Shown piece after piece: positions 17,882-35,033 of a stretch of DNA of 64,000 bases. The notes beneath the pieces are model-generated. The model was not told the origin of the DNA and searched no databases. It saw nothing but the letters and a program-made list of their open reading frames with translations. Each line of letters begins with the position of its first letter. The stretch's first letter is position 1. Source of the DNA: Anaerolineales bacterium (GTDB taxonomy: Bacteria > Chloroflexota > Anaerolineae > Anaerolineales > UBA11579); contig JAHCIJ010000001.1 in assembly GCA_026129255.1 (NCBI GenBank), forward strand, positions 708,965-772,964, read 5' to 3'. The position numbers and the translations under genes were made by a program.

Positions 17882-19339
17882 ATGGCTGCTAATCAGCGCA
17901 TGGGCTATCTGCCTAACGAGACCCCGCCCGTGGGTCAGCTTATTCTTTTGGGCTTCCAGCACGTTCTCACCATGTTCCCGGCCACCGTTTTGGTGGCTGC
18001 TTTGTGTGGCTTCCACGTCAACACCGTGCTGTTCGCCTCGGGCGTTTCCACCATTGTGGCGCTCATTCTGTCCAAGATGGGCATCGGCAAGTTCATCCCC
18101 CTGTACTACGGCTCGAGCTTCAGCTACATTGCGGCTTACGTTGCCGTGGTCACCGCTATGACCGGCGCAGCGCCGGCCTTTGGTGTGCCCGCTCCGGATA
18201 ACGTCATCAGCACCATGCAGGCCGGCATCATCGTGACCGGTTTGCTCAACATCGTGTTGGGTTTCATCATCCGCGCAGTAGGCAAGAGCGCACTGGATAA
18301 GGTGCTGCCCCCGGTGGTGACTGGCTCTGTGGCTGCCATCATCGGTTTCGGTCTGGCTTTTGCCGCTCTGGGCATGGCTGGCGCTAACTGGGCGGTTTCC
18401 CTTGGTACGCTGCTGATCACCATCCTGTTCTCGGTGTACCTGCAGAACCGTGGTTTCCTGGGCATGCTGCCTGTGCTGCTCGGCGCGCTGGGCGGCTTCG
18501 TGCTGTCCGCCGTGCTAGATGCTGGCTCGGTGAGCTTTGCCGGTGTGGCTGCTGCCCCGCTTTTCCAGATGCCGCACTTCACCTTCCCCGCCTTTGGTGG
18601 CGCCTTCGTGGCCACTGCGGTGTTCAGCATCGCCATCATGGCGATCGCCACGATCCCCGAATCCACGGCGCACCTGTACCAGATCAGCCTCTATGTCGAT
18701 CGCTTCGCTGAGGAGCGCCGCGCCAAGAAGTATGAGCTGGACAAGCACGTTGGCTTCAACCTGATCCTGGATGGTGTGGGCGACTTCACCAACGGTTTGC
18801 TCGGTGCCACGGCTGGCACCAACTACGGCGAGAACAACTCGCTGATGGCGATCACTCGCAACTACTCCGGCCCGGCCTTGATCGCGGCTGGCGCCATCTC
18901 CATCCTGCTGGCCTTTGTCGGCAAGCTGGCTGCGTTGGTGAGCGCTGTGCCCCTGGCGGTCAGCGGTGGTTTGGCCATCTACCTGTTCGGTGTGATCGGT
19001 ATGCAGGGCATCGCCCTGATGCAGGAGCACAAGGTGAGCATGTTCGACCCGCGCAACCTGGCCGTTGGCGCCACCATCATGGTGGTGGGCATCGGTGGCA
19101 ACATCGGTTACGAGGGCGGCTTCCTGCCCATCCCGTTCCTGCAGGGCATCTTCCCCAGCGGTTTGCCCGCCATCGCCACCGCGGCGGTGCTCGGCATCCT
19201 GCTCAACGCTGTGTTCCTGATCTTTGCCCCTGAGGGCGAGAGCAAGGCCGCCGCTGGCAAGTCGACTGCGGTGAAGAAAGCAGCTGGCAAGAAGACGGCT
19301 ACCAAGAAGGCTGCCAAGAAGACGGCTCGCCGCCGCTAA
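17882..19339 (+). CDS. NCS2/NAT family nucleobase (uracil/xanthine-type) permease with a Lys/Ala-rich C-terminal tail
   Basis: The sequence looks polytopic. NAT signature-like YGENNSLMAITR. The C-terminus is KAAAGKSTAVKKAAGKKTATKKAAKKTARRR. Confidence 0.88.
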   Translation: MAANQRMGYLPNETPPVGQLILLGFQHVLTMFPATVLVAALCGFHVNTVLFASGVSTIVALILSKMGIGKFIPLYYGSSFSYIAAYVAVVTAMTGAAPAFGVPAPDNVISTMQAGIIVTGLLNIVLGFIIRAVGKSALDKVLPPVVTGSVAAIIGFGLAFAALGMAGANWAVSLGTLLITILFSVYLQNRGFLGMLPVLLGALGGFVLSAVLDAGSVSFAGVAAAPLFQMPHFTFPAFGGAFVATAVFSIAIMAIATIPESTAHLYQISLYVDRFAEERRAKKYELDKHVGFNLILDGVGDFTNGLLGATAGTNYGENNSLMAITRNYSGPALIAAGAISILLAFVGKLAALVSAVPLAVSGGLAIYLFGVIGMQGIALMQEHKVSMFDPRNLAVGATIMVVGIGGNIGYEGGFLPIPFLQGIFPSGLPAIATAAVLGILLNAVFLIFAPEGESKAAAGKSTAVKKAAGKKTATKKAAKKTARRR

Positions 19340-19364
19340 GCAGTAGTTTCAGAAGAACCAAAAA

Positions 19365-19398
19365 GAGCAGCGCAATGCGCTGCTCTTTTTTTTTTTTT
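19365..19398 (+). terminator. Rho-independent terminator after the permease gene
   Basis: GAGCAGCGC-aat-GCGCTGCTC followed by 13 T. Confidence 0.85.
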
Positions 19399-19409
19399 GC
19401 GGGTATCTT

Positions 19410-19886
19410 CCACAGATAAACACGGATAGAGCAATATTTTTTTACCGCAAATGAACGCAGATGAACACAGATAAAACCTACTATAAACAAAAAACGTAGC
19501 CCGTTTGTCTTTGCGAGGCTGGCGTAGCCAGCCGAAGCAATCCCCAGGTGTATTTGCGCTATGGCTCGGAGATTGCTTCGTCGGCGCAGCTTCGCTGCGC
19601 ACTCCTCGCAAAGACGATTGAGCAGTGGATCTATCTGCTATGGACACAGATAAAAACTAAATAGGGGCCAAGCTGCAAAAGCAAAGCGCAGCCTGTTTGT
19701 CTTTGCGAGGGCGGTGTAGCCGCACGAAGCAATCCCCAAGCCTTTTATCTGCGGATGAACACGAATAAAACGGCTGGTCGTCATTCCGCCCTCGTTGCAC
19801 CCGGGCCGCAAAGGCGATGGAGCAGTGGACCTATCAATGTTTCTATCTGTGTTTATCGGTGGATAGACATCTGTGTTCATCTGTGG
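19410..19886. repeat. About 480-bp gene-free mosaic of family A and family B dispersed repeats
   Basis: Family A copies lie at 19410-19431, 19445-19476, 19627-19656, 19745-19770 and 19821-19886. The family B palindrome is at 19500-19616, with a half copy at 19691-19737. An AGCAGTGGAYCTATC motif occurs at 19621 and 19821. Confidence 0.85.
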
Positions 19887-19890
19887 TCTC

Positions 19891-20718
19891 TTAGCCCAGC
19901 TCGCGTTGCAAAAACTCCCCAAAACTCCCAGGTGCGCGGCCTAGCAAACCAGCCAGCATAAAGCTGCTGGCGGTGAAGCTGTGCGCGTCGTAGTAAGTGA
20001 ACATAGCAGCCAAGGTATCCCGTGCGTACGCGGGCAGCCGGGTATTGGCTGCCTTCCACTCCGCCAGTGGCTGCTGGACTGCAGCCACTGGGCGGCCGAT
20101 GTGCGCGGCTACTTGCCCGGCTATCTCGGCCGAGCTCAGCGTTTCTGGCCCGGCTAGCGCGTAGACCCCGCCGCGGTGGCCAGGCTCCAGCAGGACACGG
20201 GCGGCCACCGCGGCCACATCGTCCAGGTCCACTGGGGAGAATTGCGCTTGGGGGGAATAAGGCACGCGGTATTCGCCGCGCTCACGCATGGCATCCAGAT
20301 AGGGCAGGATATTTTGCATATAGCTGGCGGGCTGCAGGATCGTGAATTCCAGCCCAGATTGGATCAGGGCTTCTTCTACGCGCAGCTTTTGCCAATGGTG
20401 CGGCATAGCCTCGATCTGCGGAAACAGCACCGAGTGATATACGAAGCGCCGCACGCCAGCCGCCTTGGCCGCTGTGATCCATGCTGCCCCTAGCTCAGCC
20501 TCGTTGGGAAACATGTTAGGCGCAATGAAGTACACCGCCTCCGCGCCGGCTAAGGCAGCCGCCATCGCCGCCGCGTCAGCCATGTTGCCTTGCAGCACTT
20601 CGTCAGCAGGCAGCGGTTGCTCGCGGCGCACCAGCGCTCGCGTCGCCGCGCCTTCTGCCTGCAGAGCGGCCAGCACCGCACGGCCGGTCTTGCCGCTGGC
20701 TCCTGTCACCAAGATCAT
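19891..20718 (-). CDS. NmrA-like / atypical SDR NAD(P)-binding protein
   Basis: MILVTGASGKTGRAVLAAL Rossmann N-terminus. I chose the start at ATG 20718, giving an ATGA overlap with the upstream stop. The ORF-track extension to 20985 is Arg/Pro-rich and looks non-coding. Confidence 0.75.
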   Translation of the reverse strand: MILVTGASGKTGRAVLAALQAEGAATRALVRREQPLPADEVLQGNMADAAAMAAALAGAEAVYFIAPNMFPNEAELGAAWITAAKAAGVRRFVYHSVLFPQIEAMPHHWQKLRVEEALIQSGLEFTILQPASYMQNILPYLDAMRERGEYRVPYSPQAQFSPVDLDDVAAVAARVLLEPGHRGGVYALAGPETLSSAEIAGQVAAHIGRPVAAVQQPLAEWKAANTRLPAYARDTLAAMFTYYDAHSFTASSFMLAGLLGRAPGSFGEFLQRELG

Positions 20719-21590
20719 GCTGCCTCTTGCAACACGGCGACAAAGCCCGCCAGCGCATCGGCCCCGGAGGTGTGCCCGGTGGGCAGTATGCGCATGACCG
20801 CGGCTTGCAGGGCGGCTGGGTCTTGGGCGGTGATAGCATCCACAAGCTGGTGCCAGGGTGCGGCGGCTTCGCCGCGGCTGCCCGCCGCCAGCCAGGCGGC
20901 GGAGAGGGCATGTGTGCGCTCGCTGGCTACGTTGGCCATTAGGGCCGCAAGCTCGCCAGCGGCAGCCGCGGATCGCGTGGCCCACAGGCCGTACATGGCA
21001 CCCAACAGCAGGTCGTCCCCGGCGGGGGTGAGGCCGGGACCGACCCCGGCCAGCTTGCGGGCGGCCTCCTGCACACGGTCGGCATCCTGGGTGGTGATAC
21101 CATCCAGCAGCAGGGGGATATTTTGCTCGGCCAGCTGCTGGATGCGCGCGGGCAGGACCGAGGCACCCGCAGCGGCCAGCACCAGACGTGCCAGGCTATC
21201 CGCGGGCGCGTGAGCGGCCAATAGGGCGCTGATATCTCCAGCTGCGTGCTGCATCAATGCTGGCGCCGCCTGTAAGCTGGCCCAGTCGGGCACAGGCTGC
21301 CAGGCGGAGGCTTCTTCTGCATCGATCAGCCAATCATCTAACCACAACCCGTTCTCAAACACCAGCAGGCGCGAAGTGGCCTGCGTGCCGGTCGGAAACT
21401 CTTCGAGCACGAGTGAGAAGGGGCCATCGCCGATGCGTGCATCCACCAGAGAGAGGATGTGTGCGTCCTGGTTGATCAAGTTCACCACAGCTTCAAAAGC
21501 ATACAGCACGCGGGCTTCCTGCGTGCTGCTTAACCAGTGCTGTGCTGCGGGCGCAATCGAGAGCGCTCGCAGACGGCGGTCTGGGCTCAT
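20715..21590 (-). CDS. DUF2877-like protein (YlbF-type partner of FdrA/DUF1116)
   Basis: 291 aa, Ala-rich. The assignment rests on remembered similarity to YlbF-type proteins and on co-occurrence with FdrA and DUF1116 in the same operon. It has 4-nt overlaps at both ends. Confidence 0.55.
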   Translation of the reverse strand: MSPDRRLRALSIAPAAQHWLSSTQEARVLYAFEAVVNLINQDAHILSLVDARIGDGPFSLVLEEFPTGTQATSRLLVFENGLWLDDWLIDAEEASAWQPVPDWASLQAAPALMQHAAGDISALLAAHAPADSLARLVLAAAGASVLPARIQQLAEQNIPLLLDGITTQDADRVQEAARKLAGVGPGLTPAGDDLLLGAMYGLWATRSAAAAGELAALMANVASERTHALSAAWLAAGSRGEAAAPWHQLVDAITAQDPAALQAAVMRILPTGHTSGADALAGFVAVLQEAA

Positions 21591-22792
21591 TGTTGGATGA
21601 GCGCTCCGTGGCTGACCACGTGCACGGGGGCGCGGTGATAGCGCAGCGCCTCACGCACATTGGGCACATCCAGCACCACCAGGTTTGCAGGCGCGCCCAC
21701 CTTGAGTTCAAAGTCTTGCAGGCCGATGGCTTTGGCCGCCTCAGTGGTGACCAGACTATAGAGTGTGTCCATCTCTGCGCGCGAGGTCATCCACAGCAAG
21801 TGGGATGCCAGGAAGGCGACCTCGAGCATGTTGTTGTGGCCGTAAGGATAGTATGCATCGGAAATGTCATCCTGCCCGATGCACACATAGGCGCCTTCTT
21901 CCAGCAGCTCACGCACGCGGGCGTGCAGCGGGCCGGTTTGCGGGTCGCTCACCACGTACATGCGCGCCTGCTTGAGCAGGGCGATCACCTTTTGCAAATA
22001 GGGTACGGGATACAACGCCATGGCACGCGCATGGTGCGCCAACACGCGGCCTTGCCAGCCTTGCTTGATGGCGGCCAGCGCCATCATCTCCAGCGTGCGC
22101 AGGCCCGCGTCGCCAGCATCGTCCACCAGCATGGAGACAGGCTTGTCGAACTCTTTGGCGATGGCGAACATGGCGTCCACATGCTGCTGTGCATCCGCAT
22201 CGGTGAACTCGATCCAGGGGATACCGCCGACAACATCAGCGCCCATCCTCATCGCCTCGCGGATGAGCTCTTCGGTGCCAGGCTCACGGCCCACGCCGTC
22301 TTGAGGGAAGGCCACGATCTGCACATCTACAATGCCTTTGAACTCTTCGCGCGCTTTGATTAGTGCCTGCACGCCGATGAGCTTGGCCTTGCTATCCACA
22401 TCGGCAAAGGCACGGATGTGCGTATTGCCATTCTTGGCGGCCAGCGTCAGCGCCTTCCTCACATTCGGCAAGACCCAGCTTTCGTCGTACTCGGCTTTGA
22501 CACGGCTGGCCAGCTCAATGGCGTTCATCGCTTTGCCCATGCCGGCTCCCTGGTAACTCTGCAGGGCCAGCTCGTCCATGCGGTCCAGCGTGTACACCTT
22601 GTCGAGATGCAAATGAGCATTGACGAAGGACTCGGTCACCAGGTTGCCGCCAGCATCCAGCTCTGTATCTACGCTGCCCTTGATCACATTGTCGATGGCA
22701 GCAATACGCCCGTCTTGGATCAAGATCGAGACGGTTTCGCCAGCTGGCTTGTTGCGTAGTTGTGCATTGGTGATGAGAATGGATGGGGGCAT
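21587..22792 (-). CDS. Metal-dependent amidohydrolase, cytosine deaminase (CodA)/AtzC-like
   Basis: ILITNAQL...IQDGRIAAID...ESFVNAHLHLDK (HxH metal motif), with later His/Asp motifs. I chose the start at ATG 22792. Confidence 0.8.
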   Translation of the reverse strand: MPPSILITNAQLRNKPAGETVSILIQDGRIAAIDNVIKGSVDTELDAGGNLVTESFVNAHLHLDKVYTLDRMDELALQSYQGAGMGKAMNAIELASRVKAEYDESWVLPNVRKALTLAAKNGNTHIRAFADVDSKAKLIGVQALIKAREEFKGIVDVQIVAFPQDGVGREPGTEELIREAMRMGADVVGGIPWIEFTDADAQQHVDAMFAIAKEFDKPVSMLVDDAGDAGLRTLEMMALAAIKQGWQGRVLAHHARAMALYPVPYLQKVIALLKQARMYVVSDPQTGPLHARVRELLEEGAYVCIGQDDISDAYYPYGHNNMLEVAFLASHLLWMTSRAEMDTLYSLVTTEAAKAIGLQDFELKVGAPANLVVLDVPNVREALRYHRAPVHVVSHGALIQQ

Positions 22793-22815: not shown

Positions 22816-23304
22816 TTATTGAACGGCACGAACGGTCTTGGCAAACTGGGCTATGTGTCTTTTTTCGTGGGAGGCCAGGCTGTGTATGAAGTAGTGCACG
22901 TTGAGCTCGCGCACGAGTGTGGCTGTCAATACGGTTGCGCCATGTTGCCATTGGGCCGGCTTCAGCGCGGCTAGTTTTTTCAGCAAGCGCTTGCGTTGCA
23001 GCTTGAAAGCAGCAAAAGAGTCAGCAAATGTCTGGGTGTTGTAATCTGTGCTCAGTATCCATGTGCGCGGGCTGACGTAGCGAATGGTGGGGTGTTTCTC
23101 TTCCAACATGCGCGCCACAATGCCTTCCCAAACATCGGCACATGCGCGCAGATGGCCGAGAATTTCCACACAAGACCATTGGCCGGGTTGTTCTGGCTGG
23201 CGTAACTGGCGTTCGTTCAGGCCGGCAGTGAGCTCAGTAATTTTCCCGGGCAGCTCACTCAACAGTGCAACCGCCGCGGCAGGTGGCATGAGCTCTTTTG
23301 CCAC
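22816..23304 (-). CDS. DinB-fold (DinB_2/DUF664-like) protein
   Basis: 162 aa. The pattern WSCVEILGHLRACADVW...HEKRHIAQ fits the His-triad four-helix DinB family. Confidence 0.6.
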   Translation of the reverse strand: MAKELMPPAAAVALLSELPGKITELTAGLNERQLRQPEQPGQWSCVEILGHLRACADVWEGIVARMLEEKHPTIRYVSPRTWILSTDYNTQTFADSFAAFKLQRKRLLKKLAALKPAQWQHGATVLTATLVRELNVHYFIHSLASHEKRHIAQFAKTVRAVQ

Positions 23305-23307
23305 AGC

Positions 23308-25668
23308 TTACCCGGGCGCCGTATCCGCGTCGTGTTCTTGCCCCAGTTGCCACAGACGCAGCGGGCTGAGCGGAATCTCGCGGATTTCAAAGCCGGGCAT
23401 GTTCAGCGCATCTTCCAACGCCTGCGCTACCAGCGGGCCAACTGGAATCGCTCCGGCTTCACCTGCGCCCTTCACTCCCATCGGGTTGAGCGGCGATGGG
23501 GTGGTGGTGTGGTCGGTGTCCATGCGCGGCACATCTTGCGCGGCCGGGAGCAAATAATCCATGAACGAAGCGTTGAGAATCTGGCCCATGTCATCAAAGA
23601 CGAGCTGCTCGTAGAAGGCATTGCCCAGGCCCTGAGCCACGCCGCCATGGATTTGTCCGTCAAGAATGAGCGGGTTGATCACCTCACCACAGTCGTGCAC
23701 CACGGCATATTTCTGGATATCGATCATCATCGTGTCGGGGTCAACCTCCACGATCATGGCGTGCACACCGTAGGCGGTTGTGCCCATCTCGGGGCCGAAG
23801 TAGTCGGTAGCTTCCAGGCCGGGCTCCGTACCGGGCTTGACCGCGCCTCTCATAGGATTCGCCTTCTGCGCAAGCACGCCGAGCGGGATAGCGGTTTCAG
23901 GAGCGCCAAGGATCTGCACTTTGCCATCCACCAGCTCCAGTTTGTCAGCGGTCACTTCACCTTCGTATTCTTCGATGGCTTTGGCAATAATCTTCTCGCG
24001 CACACGCTTGGCGGCAGCGTGGATGGCATTGCCCGCCACCACCGCACCGCGGCTGGCGAAAGTGCCCACGCCCCAATGGAACTGGTCCGTGTCGCCGGTC
24101 ACCAGGTCGATCTGGTTCACGGGTACCCCAAGCTGCTCGGCCACGATCTGCGCGTAGCTGGTGTAGTGGCCCTGGCCCTGCGTGCCGATGCCGGTGGCCA
24201 CGCTGACGCGGCCATTAGCCTGCACCTGGATGCGTGCGCCTTCATAGGGGCCGATGCCCGTGCCTTCCACATAGCACACGATGCCCAGGCCTAGCTTCTT
24301 GCCAGCCTTCTCCGCGGCGGGTTTGAGCTCGCTGTAAAACTTGTCGTACTCAATCATCTTGAGCGCTTTGTCCAGCACGGGCTCATAGTTGCCGCTGTCG
24401 TAGGTCAGCTCGCTGAAGTCCTGGTAAACGATTTCGTGCTTGACGGGAAACTCATCAGGCGGGATGAGGTTCTTGCGGCGGATGGCCACTTTGTCCATGC
24501 CCAGCTCTTTGGCGGCCGCGTCCAGCAGGCGCTCCATTACGAAGACACCGTGTTGGCGGCCGGCGCCGCGGTAAGGGCTGACGATGGGCTTGTTGGTGAA
24601 GACCGCGGTGAATTCGCTGTAATAGTCCGGCACTTTGTACATGTTAAGCAGCGTGCACTGCGTGTTGATCGGCACGGTCAGGCCGTAGGGATCGTAGGCG
24701 CCATTGTCGTGCCAGAACACATCCTTTACACCCACGATGGTGCCGTCTTTCATGATGGCGAGTTCGGCCTCGTGGTGCTGGCCGCGCTCTTGCGTGGTGG
24801 AGTAGAAATTTTCGGCGCGGTCTTCGATCCATTTGACCGGAATGTTGAGCTGCATACTGATCCAGGGGAGCAGCATCTCCTCTGGATAGAACATCAGGAT
24901 CTTCGGCCCAAAGCCTCCGCCGATGAAGGGGGCGATGAGGCGCACTTGGTGCTCCGAGAGACCCAGCATGCCGGCGATACCGTTGCGGATGATGACGGGG
25001 GCCTGTGTGGTATCCCACATGGTGAGCTTGCCAGCTTTGGCATCCCAAGCGGCCACGATACCGCGGTTCTCCATGGCGGCGGCGGTGCCGCGGTCGTAGA
25101 AGAATTCACGCTTGATGATGAGGTCTGCCTTGGCTTTGGCTTTCTCGTAATTGCCTTTTTCCTGCACTACATGGGCGGCAATGTTGTTTTCTAAGTCGTC
25201 ATGGATGAGCGCGGCGCCATCGGCCAGCGCCTTCAGCGGGTCGATGTGCACCGGTAATGCTTCGTAATCCACCAGCACCAGCCCGGCGGCATCTTCGGCG
25301 ATGTAGCGCGTCTCGGCCACGATGCACACGATGACTTCGCCGACATGGCGCACCTTGTCCTTGGCCAGGATGGGGTGCAGGCGTTCGTTGAGATAAGCGT
25401 TCTTGATCGGCGGCAGGCCAACGTTAAGTACACCGGTGCGCCAGAAACTGCCCAGGTCTTCGGCCGTGTACACGGCGATGACGCCGGGCAAAGCGCGCGC
25501 CGCGCTCGCATCAATGGATTTGATGCGAGCGTGCGCGTAGGGGCTGCGCACGAAGGCGATGTGCGCCATGCCTGGCAGGTCTACATCATCAACGAAGAGC
25601 GCCCGCCCAGTGAGTAGGCGGGGATCCTCGTTGCGTTTTATGCGTTGGCCGAAGTACCGCGTGGTCAT
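23308..25668 (-). CDS. Molybdopterin-binding large subunit of a xanthine dehydrogenase/CoxL-family hydroxylase (not a form I CO dehydrogenase)
   Basis: 786 aa. GQRIKRNEDPRLLTG N-terminus. Active-site loop SPYRGAGR rather than the CODH VAYRCSFR. C-terminal GVKGAGEAG. Confidence 0.9.
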   Translation of the reverse strand: MTTRYFGQRIKRNEDPRLLTGRALFVDDVDLPGMAHIAFVRSPYAHARIKSIDASAARALPGVIAVYTAEDLGSFWRTGVLNVGLPPIKNAYLNERLHPILAKDKVRHVGEVIVCIVAETRYIAEDAAGLVLVDYEALPVHIDPLKALADGAALIHDDLENNIAAHVVQEKGNYEKAKAKADLIIKREFFYDRGTAAAMENRGIVAAWDAKAGKLTMWDTTQAPVIIRNGIAGMLGLSEHQVRLIAPFIGGGFGPKILMFYPEEMLLPWISMQLNIPVKWIEDRAENFYSTTQERGQHHEAELAIMKDGTIVGVKDVFWHDNGAYDPYGLTVPINTQCTLLNMYKVPDYYSEFTAVFTNKPIVSPYRGAGRQHGVFVMERLLDAAAKELGMDKVAIRRKNLIPPDEFPVKHEIVYQDFSELTYDSGNYEPVLDKALKMIEYDKFYSELKPAAEKAGKKLGLGIVCYVEGTGIGPYEGARIQVQANGRVSVATGIGTQGQGHYTSYAQIVAEQLGVPVNQIDLVTGDTDQFHWGVGTFASRGAVVAGNAIHAAAKRVREKIIAKAIEEYEGEVTADKLELVDGKVQILGAPETAIPLGVLAQKANPMRGAVKPGTEPGLEATDYFGPEMGTTAYGVHAMIVEVDPDTMMIDIQKYAVVHDCGEVINPLILDGQIHGGVAQGLGNAFYEQLVFDDMGQILNASFMDYLLPAAQDVPRMDTDHTTTPSPLNPMGVKGAGEAGAIPVGPLVAQALEDALNMPGFEIREIPLSPLRLWQLGQEHDADTAPG

Positions 25669-26458: not shown

Positions 26459-26498
26459 AACACTCCTTGGTTTTTTTTAGCTGTCTGATAGTCACTTA

Positions 26499-26552
26499 GT
26501 CATCTGGTCAATTGGTCTGTTGGTCGACCAACAGACCAATTGACCAGATGAC
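26499..26552. repeat. Perfect 54-bp palindrome (family D repeat) inside the catabolic operon
   Basis: GTCATCTGGTCAATTGGTCTGTTGGTC|GACCAACAGACCAATTGACCAGATGAC, centred on GTCGAC. It lies in the 104-nt gap between the DUF1116 stop and the cyclase start. Confidence 0.9.
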
Positions 26553-26562
26553 GTACTCTCTT

Positions 26563-27813: not shown

Positions 27814-27820
27814 TCCAATT

Positions 27821-27898
27821 CAGTGAGCAGTGATGTGTGAACAGTGAACAGGCTAGCAAGCTATGTACTGCTCACTGTTCACTACTCACTTCTCACTA
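27821..27898. repeat. Family E repeat hairpin (GTGAACAGTGAACAG / CTGCTCACTGTTCAC) in the FdrA-DUF1116 gap
   Basis: 15-bp stem with one mismatch and a 16-nt loop, flanked by further CAGTGAGCAG / CACTTCTCACTAG units. Confidence 0.75.
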
Positions 27899-27900
27899 GA

Positions 27901-29571
27901 TTACTTACCTTTCATCTTCTCCAAAATACTGGCCAGCGCTTCATTGCCACCCGCAGGCGGGCGCCAATCCACTTGCACCGCGTCGGCTCCTTGTGCCTTC
28001 AGGCTGTCAAAGAAGCTCTCTACGCCCACGTTGATGGCGGCCAGCGGCTCGCTGAATGGCCGCAGGGCTTTGCCCGCGGCGCTGGGTGCTGCGGCCAAGC
28101 GGGCGGCAATGTAGTCCACCGCCATCGTTGTTTCGCGGAAGATGCGCGCGCCTGCCGCTTCCAGCTTGGCGATCTGCTCATCGGTGTTCTGGGGGTCTTC
28201 GTCTGTACCCACCACCAGCGCTACAAACTCAATGTCTGGACGTGCCTTGCGATGGCTTGCAATGGCCGCGGCCAGCTCGCCAGCCGGGTCGGCATGCGAG
28301 CCTTCGCCCAGCACTACGTCCAGCAACACCAAGCCAGTTTCGGAGTCTTCGACTTCCTGCTTGAGGCGGCGCAGGCGCAGGTTGTTTTCCATCATCGGGT
28401 GCAGACGGCCCACGGTGAAGACATCTTCGCCCAAGTCGATGATGGTGTGTGCCTGACTGTGCAGCGGGTCAGCCATTTTCTGTGAGCTGCGTATAGCCAC
28501 ATTCGAATATATAGGGTGCAGGAAATTCTGCAGCCCGTTAAGCGCCTCGTAGGCCAAGGTGCCGCCGGAGAACAGGCCGCGCAGATAATCACCGCGCCGC
28601 TCAATTGTGGGCGGGGAGATGGCGCCGTTGCTCAGCCCTACGGCAATGCGTGCCGCTGAGTCGAGCCCGTTCGAGAAATGCACATTGCCGATCTGCTCGG
28701 CCGGCGCTGCAAAGCCGATGAAGCACACCACCACCGGCTTACCCGCCGTCTGCGCTTCGCTCAACAGGTGGGCGGCAGTAGCCTCGTCGGGCGGCTTGGA
28801 GATGAGCACGATGACCTGCGTACTCTCGTCGGCGGCCAGGTAGCGCAGGCCTTGCAGCATGCTGGCCGCGCCAACCTCAGCCTTGAGATCGCGCCCGCCC
28901 GTGCCGATGGCTTGCGACACGCCGCCGCCATAATTGTGGATGCCCACCGTCACGGCTTGCAAACCGGTGCCGGAGGCGCCCACCAGGCCGATTGGCCCGC
29001 GGCGCACGCGGTTGGCGAAGCCGAGGCCAACACCGTTGATGATGGCGGTGCCACAATCTGGCCCCATCACCAGCAGGCCGAGCTCGGCGCCGCGTTGCTT
29101 GAGGGCAATCTCGTCTTCAAGCTCAACGTTATCGCTATACAGGAACACATGCTTGCCATTGTCCAGCGCCTCGTGTGCCACCTTGGCGGCGTAGCGGCCC
29201 GGCACGGAGATCAGCACCCACTCGGCGGCAGGCAGGTTCTTGACCCCCGCCGCCAGGCTACGCGGGCGGAAAGCTTGGTTCCCGCCGCCGCTGCTGCGCT
29301 GCTTAAGCAGCTCGTCTACCTGCGCCAGTGCATCGCTAGCTTCGCCTTCGCTGCCAGCACGCACCACAATCAGCAAATCCTCTGGGCGGGCCGCTTTGCC
29401 TGCCGCTTCGAGCAAGTCGCTATCGGCCAACAATTCAAGATTGGCGGGCGTGGCCATCACTACACCGGCGTCTTCCACGCCGGGCAGGGCGGCCAGCTTG
29501 CGCTGCAATTGCATCAGCACCACCGAGTCGTAATATACGCCGGGGCGCACTTCACTTTTGGTTACGCTCAT
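27901..29571 (-). CDS. fdrA: FdrA-type acyl-CoA synthetase-like protein (succinyl-CoA synthetase alpha-like domains)
   Basis: N-terminus VRPGVYYDSVVLMQL. CoA-binding/ligase-CoA-like segments (VLISVPGRYA, MGPDCGTAIINGVGLGFAN, GASGTGLQ). I chose the start at ATG 29571, 1 nt after the amidase stop. Confidence 0.78.
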   Translation of the reverse strand: MSVTKSEVRPGVYYDSVVLMQLQRKLAALPGVEDAGVVMATPANLELLADSDLLEAAGKAARPEDLLIVVRAGSEGEASDALAQVDELLKQRSSGGGNQAFRPRSLAAGVKNLPAAEWVLISVPGRYAAKVAHEALDNGKHVFLYSDNVELEDEIALKQRGAELGLLVMGPDCGTAIINGVGLGFANRVRRGPIGLVGASGTGLQAVTVGIHNYGGGVSQAIGTGGRDLKAEVGAASMLQGLRYLAADESTQVIVLISKPPDEATAAHLLSEAQTAGKPVVVCFIGFAAPAEQIGNVHFSNGLDSAARIAVGLSNGAISPPTIERRGDYLRGLFSGGTLAYEALNGLQNFLHPIYSNVAIRSSQKMADPLHSQAHTIIDLGEDVFTVGRLHPMMENNLRLRRLKQEVEDSETGLVLLDVVLGEGSHADPAGELAAAIASHRKARPDIEFVALVVGTDEDPQNTDEQIAKLEAAGARIFRETTMAVDYIAARLAAAPSAAGKALRPFSEPLAAINVGVESFFDSLKAQGADAVQVDWRPPAGGNEALASILEKMKGK

Positions 29572-29572: not shown

Positions 29573-30853
29573 TCACTTGCTCTCTGCCAGGGCGGCTTCG
29601 ATGTCTTCGCCCCAGGCCAGCAGTTGCTCGTCTTGCCCATAGGCAGCGATCAGCTGGGTGCCCAAGGGCAAGCCAGCCGTGTTCCAGCCGGTGGGCAGAC
29701 CCAGGGCAGGCATGCCAGCCTGCGTCCAGGGCAGGTTCATCACCGGGTCCCCGGTGCGCGCCAGGCCCGCGGGCGCCGCATCCACAGCCGACGGCGCAAG
29801 CCACAACTGGAAGCCGTGAATGTTCATCAATGAACCCAGGTCGTGGCGCAGCCCGCGGGCAGCCTCCAGCGCGTCGTCCAGTTCAGCGGCGCGGATGGCA
29901 AGGCCCTCGCGAACCAGCTCTGCCAGCTTGGGGCTGTAGAGATGCGAATAGCGTGCATACCAGCGTGCGTGTGTCTGCGCCGCTTCGGCCGCCAGGATAC
30001 GGCCGTGGCGTTGCACGATGCTGGCAAATTCATTCAAGGCGCGCACACGTTTGACGTGATAGCCTGTCTGGCGCAAACGCTCGGTTACGTTATCCAGATG
30101 CTCCAGCATGTCTTTGGAGGCATGCGCCAGGTACTCACCATCAGGGATGGCGATGCTGGGCTTCTCAGCCAGGCTGGCCGATATGTACTCGTTGAGCAAC
30201 ACCCTGGCGGTCTCATGCACCAGCTCAACGTTCTGAGCGAAGATGCCCACATGATCCAGCGAGCGTGCCAGCGGGATCACGCCTTCGGCCGAGATGCGGC
30301 CGTGGCTGGGCTTGTAGCCCACCACGCCGCAGAACGAGGCGGGGCGGATCACCGAGCCAATCGTCTGTGTGCCCAGCGCCACATCCACCAGCCCAGCGGC
30401 TACTGCCGCGGCCGAGCCGCTGCTGCTGCCGCCCGGCGTGTGGTCTGGGTTGTGCGGGTTACGTGTTGGCCCAGGGGTGAAGTAGGCAAACTCAGTAGTA
30501 ACCGTCTTGCCCGCTACCAGCGCTCCAGCACGTTTCAACGCGCTGACCGCCGCCGCTTCCTTGCCCTGCAAAGCGCGCGGTGGCAAGTGGCTGCCCGCAC
30601 GCGTCTCAAAACCATCTACATGAAAAATATCTTTGGCACCCAGTAGCAGGCCGAACAGGGGTGGACGTTTTTCGGGGTTAGCGTACTTATTGGCAAGGCG
30701 GCGCGCTTCGTTGCGCAGGCGTTTGAAGCGGTTCTCTTCACTGACGAAGGCGTGCACACGCGGCTCGCGGCTGGCGAACAGCTGCTCAAATTTATCCAAG
30801 CGTGTGCTCAGCTGCGCGTTGACGGCTTGCGGCGATACTTTTGTCTTTGCCAT
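29573..30853 (-). CDS. Amidase-signature family amidase
   Basis: GGSSSGSAAAVAAG signature and a catalytic Lys/Ser-cisSer context (GAKDIF...TTEFA). I chose the start at ATG 30853, which overlaps the upstream TAA by 1 nt (TAATG). Confidence 0.88.
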   Translation of the reverse strand: MAKTKVSPQAVNAQLSTRLDKFEQLFASREPRVHAFVSEENRFKRLRNEARRLANKYANPEKRPPLFGLLLGAKDIFHVDGFETRAGSHLPPRALQGKEAAAVSALKRAGALVAGKTVTTEFAYFTPGPTRNPHNPDHTPGGSSSGSAAAVAAGLVDVALGTQTIGSVIRPASFCGVVGYKPSHGRISAEGVIPLARSLDHVGIFAQNVELVHETARVLLNEYISASLAEKPSIAIPDGEYLAHASKDMLEHLDNVTERLRQTGYHVKRVRALNEFASIVQRHGRILAAEAAQTHARWYARYSHLYSPKLAELVREGLAIRAAELDDALEAARGLRHDLGSLMNIHGFQLWLAPSAVDAAPAGLARTGDPVMNLPWTQAGMPALGLPTGWNTAGLPLGTQLIAAYGQDEQLLAWGEDIEAALAESK

Positions 30854-31341
30854 TACTCCGCCACTTCGTTGAGCTTCTTCGCCGCCAGCAGCGTGGCATC
30901 CACAATGTGCTGGTAACCAGTGCAACGACACAAATTGCCGGAGATGGCCTCGCGCACTTCAGCTTCGTTGGGGTTCTTGTTCTCTTCGAGGAATGGCACT
31001 AGCGTCATCAAGATGCCAGGCGTGCAGAAGCCGCACTGCAGGCCATGCGCTTCCCAGAAAGCGTTCTGGATGGGGTGCATGTTGTCTTCGCTCTGAGCCA
31101 GGCCTTCCACGGTGGTGAGCTCGTGCCCGTTGGCTTGCACAGCCAGCATGATGCAGCTACGCACCGGCTTGCCGTCAAACAGCACCGTGCATGCGCCGCA
31201 CACGCCATGCTCGCAGCCCACGTGCGTGCCGGTCAGCCCGGCTTCGTGGCGAATGAAATCGGCCAGCAGCATACGCGGCTCGACCTGCTTCTCAATCGTC
31301 TTGCCATTGATCGTGACAGTAATCGGATAGCTGTTGCTCAT
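30853..31341 (-). CDS. (2Fe-2S)-binding small subunit of the Mo hydroxylase
   Basis: GCEHGVCGACTV and CGFCTPG...CRCTGY cluster motifs (CoxS/XdhA-N type). Confidence 0.92.
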   Translation of the reverse strand: MSNSYPITVTINGKTIEKQVEPRMLLADFIRHEAGLTGTHVGCEHGVCGACTVLFDGKPVRSCIMLAVQANGHELTTVEGLAQSEDNMHPIQNAFWEAHGLQCGFCTPGILMTLVPFLEENKNPNEAEVREAISGNLCRCTGYQHIVDATLLAAKKLNEVAE

Positions 31342-31344: not shown

Positions 31345-32220
31345 TTAGGCTACCTTTGCTCGCTGAGTGGCGGTGGCCAACGCACGCTCGGTCAGCACCG
31401 CAGAGAGATGGCGCTGATACTCCGGCGTGGCGTGCACGTTGCCAAAAGGGTGCATGTCTTCCTGGCTGGCAATGCGGCCGGCCTCTTTGAATGCGGCGGC
31501 CTCAGGCGCCTTGCCGATCAGGCTGGCTGCCGCGCTGGCCGCATCTACCGGCCCATCGCCCACGTTGAGGTACACCAACTTGGCCGCAGCGATCTTGTCG
31601 TTCGCATCCAGTTCTACGATGGCGGCCAATCCCGCCATGGCGTAATCGCCGTGGCGGCGCGCTACCTCAGTAAAGCAGTAGCCGGTGCGTGCCGTCTTGG
31701 TGGGGAAGGCGATCTCGGTCAGCAGTTCATCTGTCTGCAGAGCAGTGGCGAACAGGCCGGCGAAAAAGTCCTTGGCCTCAATCCAGCGCTCGCCTGCGCT
31801 ACTTTGGGCGCGAAATCTGGCGCCTAGCGCCAGCGCCACCACGGGCAACTCGGAGGCCGGGTCGGCGTGCGCCAGGCTGCCTCCGATGGTGCCGCGGTTG
31901 CGAATTTGGGGATGGGCAATATTGGGAATGGCTTCATGCAGCAGGGGCACATGCTCAGCAATCAGCTTGTCTCGCTCGGCGCTGGATTGCAGCGTCATGC
32001 TGCCTATATGGACCGAGCCGTTGGGTTTGGTGATGTGGCGCAGCTCGGGGATATGGTTCAGATCGATCAGCAGGCTGGGTTGGGCCACGCGGAAATTCAT
32101 GGCTGGGATCAGGCTCTGCCCGCCAGCCAGTGGCTTCCCATCGTCTCCGTGCTCGGCTTTGAGGGCAAGCGCCGCGTCCAGAGAGGTGGGTGCATGGTAC
32201 TCAAACGGAGCCGGTTTCAT
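31345..32220 (-). CDS. FAD-binding medium subunit of the Mo hydroxylase (CoxM type)
   Basis: MKPAPFEYHAPTSLDAALAL...AGGQSLIP and GTIGGSLAHADP motifs. Confidence 0.88.
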   Translation of the reverse strand: MKPAPFEYHAPTSLDAALALKAEHGDDGKPLAGGQSLIPAMNFRVAQPSLLIDLNHIPELRHITKPNGSVHIGSMTLQSSAERDKLIAEHVPLLHEAIPNIAHPQIRNRGTIGGSLAHADPASELPVVALALGARFRAQSSAGERWIEAKDFFAGLFATALQTDELLTEIAFPTKTARTGYCFTEVARRHGDYAMAGLAAIVELDANDKIAAAKLVYLNVGDGPVDAASAAASLIGKAPEAAAFKEAGRIASQEDMHPFGNVHATPEYQRHLSAVLTERALATATQRAKVA

Positions 32221-32367
32221 GCGATCTGTTCACCATTCTCAAAAAAAGTTTGGATACGAGTGGAACTTTAATCGTACTACAAACTGCAAAACTTCTCTAT
32301 CGTCACAGCCAGCCAGGTGCGTTTGTCCCTTGCTGTATTGCTCAATCTTTGTCATCATGGGCGCACC

Positions 32368-33513
32368 ATGAGATCCGTAAGCATTGTCGCAATCGCCCAA
32401 TTGCCGGTGGTGAAAGCCAACTCCGATTCGCTCAGCCATATGGCCGCCAGCGTCATCCGTGAGGCCATGCGCAACGCAGGGGTCACGCGCATCCAGGCTT
32501 TGTTTGTCGGCAATATGCTGGCTGATGAGCTGCAGAACCAGAAGCACCTAGGTGCGCTGTTCGCCGATGAGGCTGGCCTGCACGGCATCGAGGCGATGCG
32601 CGTGGGGGCCGCTACCGCGGGTGGCGCCGCTGCCCTGCGCGTCGCCTACCTGGCGGTGGCCAGCGGTGAGGTGGACGTGGCCGTGGCCATGGGCGCCGAG
32701 AAAATGAGCGACAGCAGCGCCGTACCTGCACTGGCCAAGGCGCTGGATGCGAAACTAGAAGTGCCCCTGGGCGCCAACATGATCAACCGCAACGCAGAGC
32801 TGATGCGTATGTACATGGAGCGCTATAAAGTGCCTAAGGGCGGCTTTACCAACTTCTCGCTCAATGCTCATAAGAACGCCAAGACCAATCCCTATGCCAT
32901 GTTCCGTAAGCCGGTATCCGTGGCCACGGTGCGCAACTCTCGCATGATCTATGCCCCTCTGCGTCTGTACGACAGCGCCCCGATCTGTGATGGGGCGGCG
33001 GCTGTGGTGCTGGTGCCAACGGAGCAGGCCAGCGAGTACGGCCAGCACTCGGTGCGCATTCTGGGGTCTGCCATGGCTACCGATTACTTCCGCATGGAGG
33101 ATCGGCCCAGCCCGCTGCAACTGCGCGCTGCCCAGATCTCTGCCGAGAAGACCTACCGTATGGCGGGCCTGACGCGTGAAGACGTGAACGTGTTCGAAGT
33201 ACATGATGCCTTCACCATCATGTCTGCTCTGCAACTGGAGGCGGCCGGCTTTGCTGCCGCCGGCCGCGGCTGGAAGCTTGCCCAGGAGAACGAGATCGGC
33301 CTCAAGGGCAAAATGCCCATCACCACCTTTGGTGGCCTGAAGGCGCGCGGCCACCCGGTTGGCGCCTCCGCGCTGTATCAAACCTGCGAGCTGTTCCTGC
33401 AGCTCACCGGCCAGGCGGGCAAGAACCAGGTGCGCAAAGCCAAGGTGGGCATGATGCAATCGATCGGTGGCGTGGCGTCAACGGTCGTGACGCATATTCT
33501 GGGTGGGGAATAG
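32368..33513 (+). CDS. Thiolase-like (SCP-x/archaeal-type thiolase domain) protein, divergent from the hydroxylase operon
   Basis: Thiolase-fold pattern (VDVAVAMGAEKMS, FEVHDAFTIM, GGLKARGHPVGASA, IGGVAST). The position where I expect the nucleophilic Cys reads VGAATAGG. I chose the start at ATG 32368. Confidence 0.7.
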   Translation: MRSVSIVAIAQLPVVKANSDSLSHMAASVIREAMRNAGVTRIQALFVGNMLADELQNQKHLGALFADEAGLHGIEAMRVGAATAGGAAALRVAYLAVASGEVDVAVAMGAEKMSDSSAVPALAKALDAKLEVPLGANMINRNAELMRMYMERYKVPKGGFTNFSLNAHKNAKTNPYAMFRKPVSVATVRNSRMIYAPLRLYDSAPICDGAAAVVLVPTEQASEYGQHSVRILGSAMATDYFRMEDRPSPLQLRAAQISAEKTYRMAGLTREDVNVFEVHDAFTIMSALQLEAAGFAAAGRGWKLAQENEIGLKGKMPITTFGGLKARGHPVGASALYQTCELFLQLTGQAGKNQVRKAKVGMMQSIGGVASTVVTHILGGE

Positions 33514-33520
33514 CAACTTC

Positions 33521-33594
33521 GGTGAACGGTGATCAGTAATCGGTAATCAGGTTTTCCTGTTCACTGATTACTGTTCACTAATCACTGCTCACTT
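33521..33594. repeat. Family E repeats between the convergent thiolase-like and xdhC genes; the last few nt overlap the 3' end of xdhC
   Basis: GGTGAACGGTGATCAGTAATCGGTAATCAGG...CTGTTCACTGATTACTGTTCACTAATCACTGCTCAC has partially self-complementary arms. It is a likely bidirectional terminator. Confidence 0.65.
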
Positions 33595-34574
33595 CTGTAC
33601 TCCCTAATAATCTCCCCCATTATCGAGAGCGCGATCTCCTCCGGCGTCTTGGCGTTGATCGCCAGCCCGATCGGCGCATGCAGCCGCTCCAGCTCCTGTT
33701 CGCTTAACCCGGCCGCCAGCAGCCGCTCGCGACGCTGCGCTTGCACGCGGCGGCTGCCGAGCGCGCCGACGTAAAACGCCGCGCTGCGTAGCGCCAGCAT
33801 CAGCGCTGGCTCGTCGATCTTAGGGTCGTGGCTCAGGCACGCAACGGCCGTCGTCGCCGTCAGGCCGAGTTCTGCAAAAGCGGTCTGCGGCCACACGGGT
33901 ACCAGCTTGTGTGCATGAGCAAAGCGCTCTTCGCTCATAAAGGCTTTGCGTGGGTCGATGATGATGGTGCGGAATTCCATCAGGTGCGCTATATTCACCA
34001 GCGCAGCCGTGACGTGTGATGCGCCAATGATCAGCAACGTAGGGGAGGCCGCCAGCGGGTTGTGGAACACTTCGCCCTCGGCTTGCGCAACCAGGTTGGC
34101 GATACGTGTGCTTTGTGTGGCTGGCCCCGTGCCGTTCTGGGCGATCAGCTCGCCGTTCTCATCGGCTAGCGTCTGGCTGCCCAGGGTTTTGCCCGAGATG
34201 ACCGTGCTCAGCGTCATGCCCTCATCTGCCTCCAAGCGCGGCAGCAACTCGGCGAAGAGCGCCGGGTCCAGCGGCTGCACGAATACGTCGATCTCGCCGC
34301 CGCAGGCCAGGCCTACTTCCCAGGCAGTGTCGTCTTGCACGCCAAAGTGCAGCAGCTCGGGTTTGCCGGATTGGATGATCTGTTTGGATGCGGTGAGCAC
34401 CGCGCCTTCAACGCAGCCGCCGCTCACGGAGCCTACCAGGCCGCCGCTCTCGCTCACCGCCATCACCGCGCCAGCTTGGCGCGGGGCCGAGCCCCAAGTG
34501 GAGATCACGGTGCACAACGCCACCCGCTCGCCCTTGGCAAGCCAGTGCTCAAGGTCCGGCAGAAGTTCGCGCAC
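33582..34574 (-). CDS. xdhC: XdhC/CoxI family molybdenum-cofactor insertion chaperone
   Basis: N-terminal XdhC_CoxI pattern (ALCTVISTWGSAPRQAGAVMAV...GSVSGGCVE) and a C-terminal Rossmann-like part (LLIIGASHVTAAL). Confidence 0.8.
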   Translation of the reverse strand: MRELLPDLEHWLAKGERVALCTVISTWGSAPRQAGAVMAVSESGGLVGSVSGGCVEGAVLTASKQIIQSGKPELLHFGVQDDTAWEVGLACGGEIDVFVQPLDPALFAELLPRLEADEGMTLSTVISGKTLGSQTLADENGELIAQNGTGPATQSTRIANLVAQAEGEVFHNPLAASPTLLIIGASHVTAALVNIAHLMEFRTIIIDPRKAFMSEERFAHAHKLVPVWPQTAFAELGLTATTAVACLSHDPKIDEPALMLALRSAAFYVGALGSRRVQAQRRERLLAAGLSEQELERLHAPIGLAINAKTPEEIALSIMGEIIREYRSEQ

Positions 34575-34586
34575 AGGTCTCTCCGT

Positions 34587-35033
34587 TTAGTTGGCTTCGA
34601 TTTGCTTTTTAGCGCAGTCGAAGAATTCGCCGCTCAGCTTGTGGGTCACACTGCCCATCATGCGTGAGGCCAGTGCAGCAATGGTACCCAATACGCTGAT
34701 GTCGGCGCTCCAGTCAAGCTTTGTGGTGCCGTCGCCTGCGTCGCTCAGCAGCATCGTCGCGGTAGCATCCACGGCGCTGCCTGGTGCGGCGCCGTGGGCT
34801 TTCAGTGTGGCCTTGTCCGGCGCGCTGATCTCGGTGAACTCGAGGTCGCCACTAAAGCGCACCTTGAGGTTCCCCAAGCCAACGGACACGGTACCCTTAA
34901 ACTTTTTGCCTTCTTCGATCACCTCCAGGCTTTCCAGCCCGGGGGCGCACTTGGAAACAAACTCAGGGTTGGTGAGATAGTGGAACACCTTATCCTGCGG
35001 AGCAGCGATGATGGTGGAGCCGTTTACGTTCAT
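34587..35033 (-). CDS. SRPBCC-fold CoxG-like protein
   Basis: 148 aa. The N-terminus (MNVNGSTIIAAPQDKVFHYLTNPEFVSKCAPG) and the adjacency to xdhC fit CoxG. Confidence 0.72.
   Translation of the reverse strand: MNVNGSTIIAAPQDKVFHYLTNPEFVSKCAPGLESLEVIEEGKKFKGTVSVGLGNLKVRFSGDLEFTEISAPDKATLKAHGAAPGSAVDATATMLLSDAGDGTTKLDWSADISVLGTIAALASRMMGSVTHKLSGEFFDCAKKQIEAN

Follow-up and report, generated by a model that had tools for sequence, protein, structure and literature searches.

A molybdenum hydroxylase and AllFGH operon in an Anaerolineales bacterium with a proposed role in oxidative pyrimidine degradation

A stretch of 64,000 nucleotides from an Anaerolineales bacterium (assembly GCA_026129255.1, contig JAHCIJ010000001.1; C1:708965-772964 of genome G000 in our numbering; hereafter the window) contains an operon in which the genes of a three-subunit molybdenum (Mo) hydroxylase are interleaved with those of AllF, AllG and AllH homologues, an amidase and a cyclase-family hydrolase, and this raises the question which compound is degraded by such a set of enzymes and by which reactions. 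The genome measures 2.38 Mb and is 92% complete, and all gene absences reported here rest on that completeness. An earlier interpretation made from the letters alone (the sequence-only reading) had proposed that a pyrimidine- or purine-like N-heterocycle is imported, hydroxylated, ring-opened and deamidated. This outline stands with a pyrimidine as the best candidate, whereas the purine option is weakened by the UraA-type residues of the permease and by the lack of allantoin-pathway genes in the genome. On balance we favor a catabolic operon whose substrate is a pyrimidine base, with uracil and/or thymine as the most likely candidates, degraded by a variant of the oxidative route via barbiturate that would save the ureido group as carbamoyl phosphate.

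The mechanism that we propose was pieced together from sequence and gene context in all its steps. The base would be taken up by the UraA-type NCS2 permease and hydroxylated at C6 to barbiturate (or 5-methylbarbiturate) by the enzyme made up of the flavin adenine dinucleotide (FAD), 2Fe-2S and Mo subunits, with XdhC and CoxG serving in its maturation. The cyclase-family metal hydrolase would then open the ring to ureidomalonate (N-carbamoylmalonamate), which the AllF-AllG-AllH homologue would cleave with phosphate to carbamoyl phosphate and malonamate, in analogy to the reaction with oxalurate. A single carbamate kinase would convert carbamoyl phosphate to adenosine triphosphate (ATP), ammonia and CO2, and a malonamidase-like amidase would hydrolyze malonamate to malonate and ammonia. 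Finally, the class III coenzyme A (CoA)-transferase would form malonyl-CoA, which a thiolase-fold protein lacking the nucleophilic cysteine may decarboxylate to acetyl-CoA.

All three subunit families FdrA/AllF, DUF1116/AllG and DUF2877/AllH (AllG and AllH being the current Pfam names of the latter two) are encoded together in the operon. Identities to E. coli AllF, AllG and AllH amount to 40%, 48% and 27%, respectively, and the AllG gene is the sole copy in the genome. The sequence-only reading had treated the reaction of this triad as merely suggested and had assigned it to the handling of the acid resulting from deamidation. The former statement is outdated: the purified E. coli AllF-AllG-AllH proteins constitute the oxamic transcarbamylase which converts oxalurate and phosphate to oxamate and carbamoyl phosphate, in a reversible reaction that was assayed in the synthetic direction, and they work together with the carbamate kinase AllK (PMC11326118, 2024). 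Given this chemistry the triad of the window most likely acts on an N-carbamoyl (ureido) group, by phosphorolysis to carbamoyl phosphate, rather than by activation of an acid. A phosphohistidine-type GHAG motif was looked for in AllF and was not found.

The remaining gene content of the genome is in line with this assignment. There is one carbamate kinase gene (arcC), and a search of the genome revealed neither carB nor any protein of the aspartate/ornithine transcarbamylase family. Therefore AllFGH is the only recognizable source of carbamoyl phosphate and carbamate kinase its only recognizable consumer, a situation which fits an ATP-yielding catabolic role as predicted from the gene inventory. 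The additions found in the operons of relatives, a pyr gene set in sister lineages and arcC at the head of the operon elsewhere, both use carbamoyl phosphate. The arcC gene of the window genome itself lies on another contig, directly downstream of an 8-oxoguanine-deaminase-type gene (NF006055, 667 bits, cut-off 532; G000:C2:220694-223154, corresponding to L036:8694-11154; L numbers denote loci).

The large subunit of the Mo hydroxylase carries the loop SPYRGAGR (PYRGAGR at residues 365-371), which fits the form II loop AYRGAGR, and it scores 898 bits with the NCBIfam model CODH_aero_grp5, below the cut-off of 950. Its closest relatives in the PDB are CoxL, quinoline 2-oxidoreductase and a ketone dehydrogenase. 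The enzyme resembles the form II "carbon monoxide (CO) dehydrogenases" in its CoxM, CoxS, CoxG and XdhC partners and in its RGAGR-type loop, and differs from form I CO dehydrogenase in that the Mo-Cu loop AYRCSFR with the Cu-binding cysteine is absent; with the model CO_dehy_Mo_lg it reaches 566 bits, below the cut-off of 991. For form II enzymes CO is probably not the physiological substrate (PMC6794299). The gene context of the enzyme in the window suggests a nucleobase instead.

An informative comparison is provided by the AtzD/TrzD/barbiturase family (PF09663), for which we searched 401 Chloroflexota genomes. The family was not found in the 92%-complete window genome, although the same search detects it in nine other Chloroflexota. 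In three of these genomes, all belonging to one family, the AtzD/barbiturase gene is the immediate neighbor of the gene for a Mo subunit which shares 49-50% identity with that of the window and has the same SPYRGAGR loop, a loop that is also conserved in type A (the gene layout of the window, below). Besides the FeS and FAD subunits and a cyclase, the barbiturase-linked clusters contain an NCS2 permease, an amidase-signature (AS) amidase, a CodA-like gene and an AMP-ligase that is best matched by the malonyl-CoA synthase model; they are devoid of AllFGH. Their AtzD-family proteins score above the cut-off for the ring-opening amidohydrolase subfamily and below the equivalog cut-off for cyanuric acid hydrolase, which the unlinked AtzD-family copy of another genome passes easily. 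A gene set of this kind would be expected for the classical oxidative pathway from uracil via barbiturate and ureidomalonate to malonate. The subunit composition of the hydroxylase in the window would fit a Mo, Fe-S and FAD uracil-thymine dehydrogenase, and its Mo subunit has barbiturase-linked relatives. Barbiturase-family matches on plasmids came from enterobacterial mobile elements and were uninformative.

In the window the ring-opening amidohydrolase which would convert barbiturate to ureidomalonate is proposed to be the cyclase. Its sequence HMGTHLDAPRH agrees with the metal-binding motif HxGTHxDxPxH of the cyclase/kynurenine formamidase family PF04199, and its matches in the PDB, kynurenine formamidase and isatin hydrolase, are weak. 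No other protein of the cluster is as well conserved as the cyclase: it shows 89% identity in a comparison that gives 83% for the Mo subunit, and 75% identity in a Geminicoccaceae alphaproteobacterium. Among the hydrolases only one of the cyclase family is always present. Cyclase homologues from Haloarcula and Rhodococcus ruber had unrelated gene contexts.

For the steps following the release of carbamoyl phosphate the assignments are predictions of different strength. The amidase has malonamidase E2 as its best PDB match (177 bits, nearly full length) with Lys62, Ser131 and Ser155 conserved, its NCBIfam scores lie below every equivalog cut-off, and we propose that it acts as a malonamidase, releasing malonate and ammonia from malonamate. 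The Lys-cisSer-Ser triad is shared with malonamidase E2 (Bradyrhizobium japonicum; PDB 1OCK and others); a specificity of the amidase for malonamate is a prediction, and the match exceeds that to a generic amidase by a small margin. The best NCBIfam models for the CoA-transferase are all for dicarboxylates (succinate-glutarate, oxalate and mesaconate CoA-transferases), and the gene remains adjacent to the cluster in rearranged relatives (L018, L027, L051, L070 and the type B loci described below); the proposed substrate is malonate (or methylmalonate). In the thiolase-like protein the active-site cysteine is replaced by threonine in the alignment to PDB 7yvy. All cluster-linked copies of this protein have Thr, Met or Pro at the cysteine site, and a Variovorax thiolase keeps the cysteine. 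Linkage of the gene to the cluster was seen in L027, L040, L051 and type C; the type C copies are paired with a gene for a DUF35-like OB-fold protein. Ketosynthase-type proteins without the cysteine are known decarboxylases of malonyl thioesters, so that the thiolase-fold protein could possibly serve as malonyl-CoA decarboxylase, a speculative assignment.

In alignment to PDB 3QE7/5XLS the permease retains the equivalents of UraA Glu241, His245 and Glu290 within the motifs IPESTAHL and YGENN, both of which are also kept by the permeases of related clusters. Xanthine and urate permeases have a glutamine at the position equal to UraA Glu290. With 206 bits the protein stays below the cut-off of the NCBIfam uracil permease model (477 bits) and is therefore not an equivalog; import of uracil or thymine is what we propose from the retained residues.

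Comparing gene neighborhoods across genomes, as the sequence-only reading had suggested, showed that the gene order is kept in 21 related loci, down to a Mo subunit identity of 74%; the closest loci all come from metagenome-assembled genomes of Anaerolineales/Chloroflexota. The conserved core of these loci consists of the FAD and FeS subunits, amidase, AllF, AllG, cyclase, Mo subunit, AllH, NmrA, NCS2 permease and CoA-transferase. Variable are the genes for the DinB-fold protein (seen only in the closest relatives L001-L005 and L017), the CodA-like protein and the thiolase-like protein. The same cluster is found on a separate 1.6-Mb metagenome contig, with the thiolase-like gene and the CoA-transferase gene lying divergently beside it.

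AllG is carried by 62 of 121 sampled Anaerolineales genomes. We fetched 40 Anaerolineales AllG loci and counted linkage within 10 kb: a cyclase was present in 34 and a Mo large subunit in 31 of them. The 40 loci sort into four types. Type A has the layout of the window and includes L062 and L067, in which arcC is located directly upstream of the FAD subunit gene; in L067 a true dihydropyrimidinase gene follows AllH (TIGR02033, 530 bits, cut-off 393). Type B contains the CoA-transferase, AllF, a C-N hydrolase replacing the AS amidase, AllG, a fused double cyclase, NmrA, the FAD subunit, a fused FeS-Mo subunit, CoxG and a BMP-type binding protein. In one such locus (L057, G110:C8) the double cyclase has 554 and the 2Fe-2S::Mo fusion 901 amino acids, and a BMP/PnrA-type binding protein stands in for the NCS2 permease. 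Type C has a XDH-like Mo subunit with a RGFG loop and 28-31% identity to the window subunit, accompanied by NCS2, AllF, AllG, cyclase, the thiolase-like protein and the DUF35-like OB-fold protein; one variant adds an AS amidase, a PucR regulator, AllH, a CoA-transferase and a CodA-like protein. Type D consists of AllF, AllG and arcC without any Mo enzyme. Since the amidase step is filled by non-homologous enzymes and AllF, AllG and the cyclase are combined with two Mo subfamilies, the genes appear to form one pathway and not a chance adjacency. In the AllG tree the Mo-linked copies fall into one group with a Shimodaira-Hasegawa-like approximate likelihood ratio test (SH-aLRT) support of 94, types A and B being joined at 99, and this group is separate from E. 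coli AllG and from type D.

Sister lineages carry genuine pyrC, pyrB, pyrF-pyrE fusion and pyrD genes inside the operon, in the interval from AllH to NmrA (L008 at 13395-17850, L007, L009, L010, L013 and L021; also L071). Like the dihydropyrimidinase gene of L067, these insertions speak for a pyrimidine as substrate. If the pathway were a source of carbamoyl phosphate, this would explain the nesting of pyrBCDEF in some lineages. A real carB was found in only 26 of the 121 Anaerolineales genomes though nearly all of them have pyrB, and carbamate kinase or AllFGH are candidates for the supply of carbamoyl phosphate in most of the carB-less members. The notion that the cluster substitutes for the missing carbamoyl-phosphate synthetase was rejected, because AllG does not track the absence of carB (13 of 26 genomes with carB versus 49 of 95 without).

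The oxidative degradation of pyrimidines in Rhodococcus and Nocardia proceeds via uracil/thymine dehydrogenase (EC 1.17.99.4), barbiturase (EC 3.5.2.1) and ureidomalonase (EC 3.5.1.95); the pathway reportedly goes back to Hayaishi and Kornberg in 1952 and to Soong et al. in 2001-2002. The proposed route shares with it a three-subunit Mo/FeS/FAD dehydrogenase, a hydrolytic ring opening and an amide cleavage leading to malonate. It differs in that a cyclase-family hydrolase would take the place of a barbiturase of the AtzD family, in that AllFGH would release the ureido group as carbamoyl phosphate where ureidomalonase releases urea, and in the additional malonamidase step. Compared with E. coli AllFGH-AllK the window has the same three subunits, a proposed phosphorolysis of an N-acyl-urea and ATP formation via carbamate kinase, with arcC being part of the operon in L062 and L067; unlike E. 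coli it has no allantoin genes, its subunit genes are interleaved with those for the Mo hydroxylase, cyclase and amidase, its AllG belongs to a separate tree group, and the proposed substrate ureidomalonate is one CH2 longer than oxalurate. The reductive uric acid pathway of anaerobes (XdhD, YgfK, SsnA, YgeW and others; bioRxiv 10.1101/2025.05.19.654654) likewise comprises a XDH-family enzyme, ring amidohydrolases and carbamoyl transfer with carbamate kinase, but the YgeW-type transcarbamylase, YgfK, SsnA and YgeX are all absent from the cluster of the window. The sequence-only reading had been unable to place the combination of genes in any described pathway, and our literature search agrees with this, as no paper describing such a composition was found and only the E. 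coli AllFGH papers were relevant.

If the proposed route is true, it would provide the genes for uracil/thymine dehydrogenase, an enzyme known by its activity alone since the 1950s, a physiological substrate for part of the widely surveyed and functionally unexplained family of "form II CO dehydrogenases", and a second substrate for the newly discovered AllFGH type of carbamoyltransferase. Anaerobes would gain ATP and nitrogen from pyrimidines without oxygen- or NADPH-dependent steps. With AllG in about half of the sampled Anaerolineales and a cyclase linked to it in 34 of the 40 loci, the metabolic reconstructions of abundant wastewater and sediment Chloroflexota would have to be changed. A more far-reaching version, which we put forward only tentatively and regard as rather doubtful when all of its three parts are taken together, holds that the form II CoxL-type enzymes of this clade are the orphan uracil/thymine dehydrogenase, that together with the cyclase and an AllFGH paralogue specific for ureidomalonate they constitute an anaerobic ATP-yielding fermentation of pyrimidines, and that the same route is a physiological source of carbamoyl phosphate in the Anaerolineales, which mostly lack carbamoyl-phosphate synthetase.

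Several points weigh against uracil or thymine degradation as outlined above. The first concerns the physiology of the host. The genome is without pyrB, pyrC, pyrD, pyrE/F and carB and has upp, so that the organism appears to be auxotrophic for pyrimidines; five of six genus-mates lack pyrB too, a gene that is present in 113 of the 121 Anaerolineales. With an apparent auxotrophy and salvage of uracil via Upp, degradation of uracil would compete with the own need of the cell. The true substrate may be thymine or some other base that is out of reach of salvage. The nesting of pyrimidine biosynthetic genes in the operon of relatives is likewise odd for a catabolic operon induced by uracil. Secondly, the assignment of single steps is affected. 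Since the barbiturase-linked clusters also keep the cyclase, its exact step is uncertain, and its substrate may instead be the 5-methyl compound or an amide further along the route. The match of the amidase to malonamidase E2 (177 bits) is barely above that to a generic Thermus amidase (168 bits). For AllFGH no substrate other than oxalurate has been proven, and NmrA is a conserved partner with no role in the scheme. Finally, the tree does not resolve the barbiturase-linked Mo subunit as sister of the window clade and identifies it as a near relative only, and we know of no sequence assigned to uracil dehydrogenase (EC 1.17.99.4) with which the Mo subunit could be compared.

The proteins for which the scheme has no step, namely the CodA-like protein, the DinB-fold protein and NmrA, deserve attention in this respect. 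NmrA, whose best PDB matches are the ketoreductase SimC7 and the quinone reductase YtfG, is found in type A, in type B and in the cluster of Rhodococcus sp. ZPP. The similarity of the predicted amidohydrolase to CodA and AtzC, noted by the sequence-only reading, was borne out, but neither a function as cytosine deaminase nor one as core ring-opening enzyme can safely be assumed: HxH, Gln156, His246 and Asp313/314 are kept whereas His214 is changed to Leu and Glu217 to Asp, its NCBIfam scores are below the cut-offs, and the gene is missing from many related clusters. With the HxxE motif absent the label cytosine deaminase is unjustified. The sequence SMLVDDAGD in the region of strand 5 (with LVDD at these positions) is invariant in ten orthologues, which points to a non-deaminase or an altered metal site. 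The CodA-like gene bears no similarity to the dihydroorotase-like gene of L008, with which it had been considered equivalent; the latter is a true pyrC.

These conserved or semi-conserved proteins would find a role if the same chemistry were applied to another urea-containing ring, for example a modified or 5-substituted pyrimidine, an isocytosine or aminopyrimidine, a triazine-like compound or a pteridine/lumazine fragment, with the CodA-like, NmrA and DinB-fold proteins trimming the substrate. The need of the host for uracil in salvage would be accounted for as well, the AtzD family includes cyanuric acid hydrolases, and three architectures with different Mo subfamilies suggest several substrates. 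We nevertheless consider this explanation unlikely, as the permease carries the residues typical of the uracil permease, the Mo-linked AtzD-family proteins remain below the cyanuric-acid-hydrolase cut-off, and no gene indicates any specific alternative substrate.

Somewhat less probable still is a purine/oxalurate route, in which a purine-derived or other ring would be oxidized and opened to oxalurate, the triad would be a true oxamate carbamoyltransferase, the amidase would convert oxamate to oxalate and the CoA-transferase would form oxalyl-CoA. It could draw on the only substrate pair demonstrated for AllFGH (oxalurate/oxamate), on the match of the CoA-transferase to the oxalate CoA-transferases YfdE and Frc, on the PucR-type regulators in related clusters, on the 8-oxoguanine-deaminase-type neighbor of arcC and on the XDH-like Mo enzyme (RGFG) of type C. 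Yet a search of the genome gave no allantoinase, allantoate amidohydrolase, ureidoglycine hydrolase or ureidoglycolate lyase (allB, allC, allE and allA being absent and arcC on another contig, there is no linkage to allantoin/oxalurate genes), and the cluster showed no gene for oxalyl-CoA decarboxylase. The permease has at the NAT-motif position the glutamate of UraA and not glutamine, the Mo-linked AllG proteins and E. coli AllG belong to separate groups, and the relatives show linkage to barbiturase, the malonyl-CoA-synthase-like ligase and dihydropyrimidinase.

Very improbable is the view that there is no single pathway and that a module of Mo hydroxylase and cyclase merely lies beside a module of AllFGH and amidase. 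Each module does occur alone, the former without AllFGH in haloarchaea, barbiturase-linked Chloroflexota and Rhodococcus, and the latter as AllF-AllG-arcC without a Mo enzyme in type D. In the window, however, the genes of both modules alternate within a single, closely packed operon, and their association is met again in three rearranged architectures and in 34 of the 40 loci. Nonomuraea gerenzanensis, a cultured carrier, likewise joins AllHFG and PucR with a 47%-identical Mo subunit and two NCS2 permeases. We give least credence of all to a reversal of the pathway, by which carbamoyl phosphate and malonamate would be turned via ureidomalonate and barbiturate into uracil (the last step being a reductive dehydroxylation) in place of the lost orotate pathway, since, despite the absence of pyrB, pyrC, pyrD, pyrE/F and carB from the genus, the pyrBCDEF genes within the operon of sister lineages, the reversibility of E. 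coli AllFGH, assayed synthetically, and the reductive action of family members such as XdhD, malonamate has no ATP-driven source and a backward amidase is unfavorable, the cluster is common in Anaerolineales that retain pyrB, arcC and dihydropyrimidinase in related clusters indicate catabolism, and uridine monophosphate is already supplied by permease and Upp.

The features of the locus, identified with the open reading frame (ORF) list and scans against Pfam and NCBIfam, are collected in Table 1. The description of the locus in the sequence-only reading proved accurate throughout: all named domains of the eleven packed minus-strand genes between 32220 and 19891 were recovered, as were the flanking genes for the NCS2 permease, the class III CoA-transferase, the divergent thiolase-like protein, XdhC and CoxG. 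A motif search retrieved HMGTHLDAPRH, NAHLHLD and PYRGAGR and did not retrieve AYRCSFR. When the most likely start codons are used, the genes join with overlaps of 1-4 nucleotides (nt) or gaps of 1-23 nt, as had been described. The starts judged most plausible are 30853 for the amidase, 29571 for FdrA, 22792 for the CodA-like protein and 20718 for NmrA.

Table 1. Features of the operon and its surroundings; positions refer to the window.
Feature	Position	Strand	Evidence
Class III (CaiB/BaiF) CoA-transferase	16497-17702	-	Pfam CoA_transf_3, 455 bits
NCS2 permease, UraA type	17882-19339	+	Pfam Xan_ur_permease; best NCBIfam model uracil permease; best PDB match UraA
NmrA-like NAD(P)H-binding reductase	19891-20718	-	Pfam NmrA
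AllH (DUF2877) homologue	20715-21590	-	Pfam AllH, 83 bits
CodA/AtzC-like amidohydrolase without HxxE	21587-22792	-	PDB matches CodA and AtzC about equal, near 180 bits
DinB-fold protein	22816-23304	-	Pfam DinB_2
Mo large subunit, 786 amino acids, form II CoxL type	23308-25668	-	Three Pfam Mo-cofactor domains
Cyclase-family metal hydrolase	25670-26458	-	Pfam Cyclase PF04199, 132 bits; HMGTHLDAPRH at residue 46
AllG (DUF1116) homologue	26563-27813	-	Pfam AllG, 315 bits
AllF (FdrA) homologue	27901-29571	-	NCBIfam FdrA, 528 bits (cut-off 433)
Amidase-signature (AS) enzyme	29573-30853	-	Pfam Amidase
2Fe-2S small subunit of Mo hydroxylase	30853-31341	-	Pfam Fer2_2, Fer2
FAD-binding medium subunit of Mo hydroxylase	31345-32220	-	Pfam FAD_binding_5, CO_deh_flav_C
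Thiolase-fold protein without nucleophilic Cys	32368-33513	+	Alignment to PDB 7yvy
XdhC-family molybdenum-cofactor insertion chaperone	33582-34574	-	Pfam XdhC_CoxI, XdhC_C
CoxG (SRPBCC) accessory protein of Mo hydroxylases	34587-35033	-	Pfam COXG

Two larger gaps interrupt the operon, one of 87 nt (27814-27900) and one of 104 nt (26459-26562), and both are occupied by palindromic repeats. A search of positions 15000-36000 for riboswitches and leaders gave only spurious microRNA-like Rfam matches on the palindrome at 26499-26552. A scan for promoters and terminators found nothing inside the operon above the expectation from shuffled sequences and one clear terminator 3' of the permease gene (19360-19390).

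More distant relatives of the cluster combine some of the same genes. On plasmid pRZP2 of Rhodococcus sp. ZPP (L094, 503-520 kb) we find an amidase, a CoA-transferase, XdhC, PucR, a SLC23/NCS2 permease, the FAD and FeS subunits, CoxG, a hydantoinase B/oxoprolinase and NmrA, and neither a cyclase nor AllFGH; the Mo subunit of this locus is unannotated, was matched in two pieces and is 42-44% identical to that of the window. The best plasmid-borne homologues of the Mo subunit, from Serratia and Variovorax, had unrelated contexts. On haloarchaeal plasmids (L028, L033, L034 and L035) a 40%-identical cyclase adjoins a XDH-like Mo enzyme, XdhC and NCS2/SLC23 permeases, together with a MocA-like nucleotidyltransferase, an amidohydrolase and a CocE/NonD hydrolase, AllFGH being present in none of them, and a Halostagnicola plasmid locus has a cytosine deaminase and codB too. 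The window genome itself possesses a second set of genes for a FAD, 2Fe-2S and Mo hydroxylase at G000:C1:373660-377614, the Mo subunit of which is 28% identical to that of the operon.

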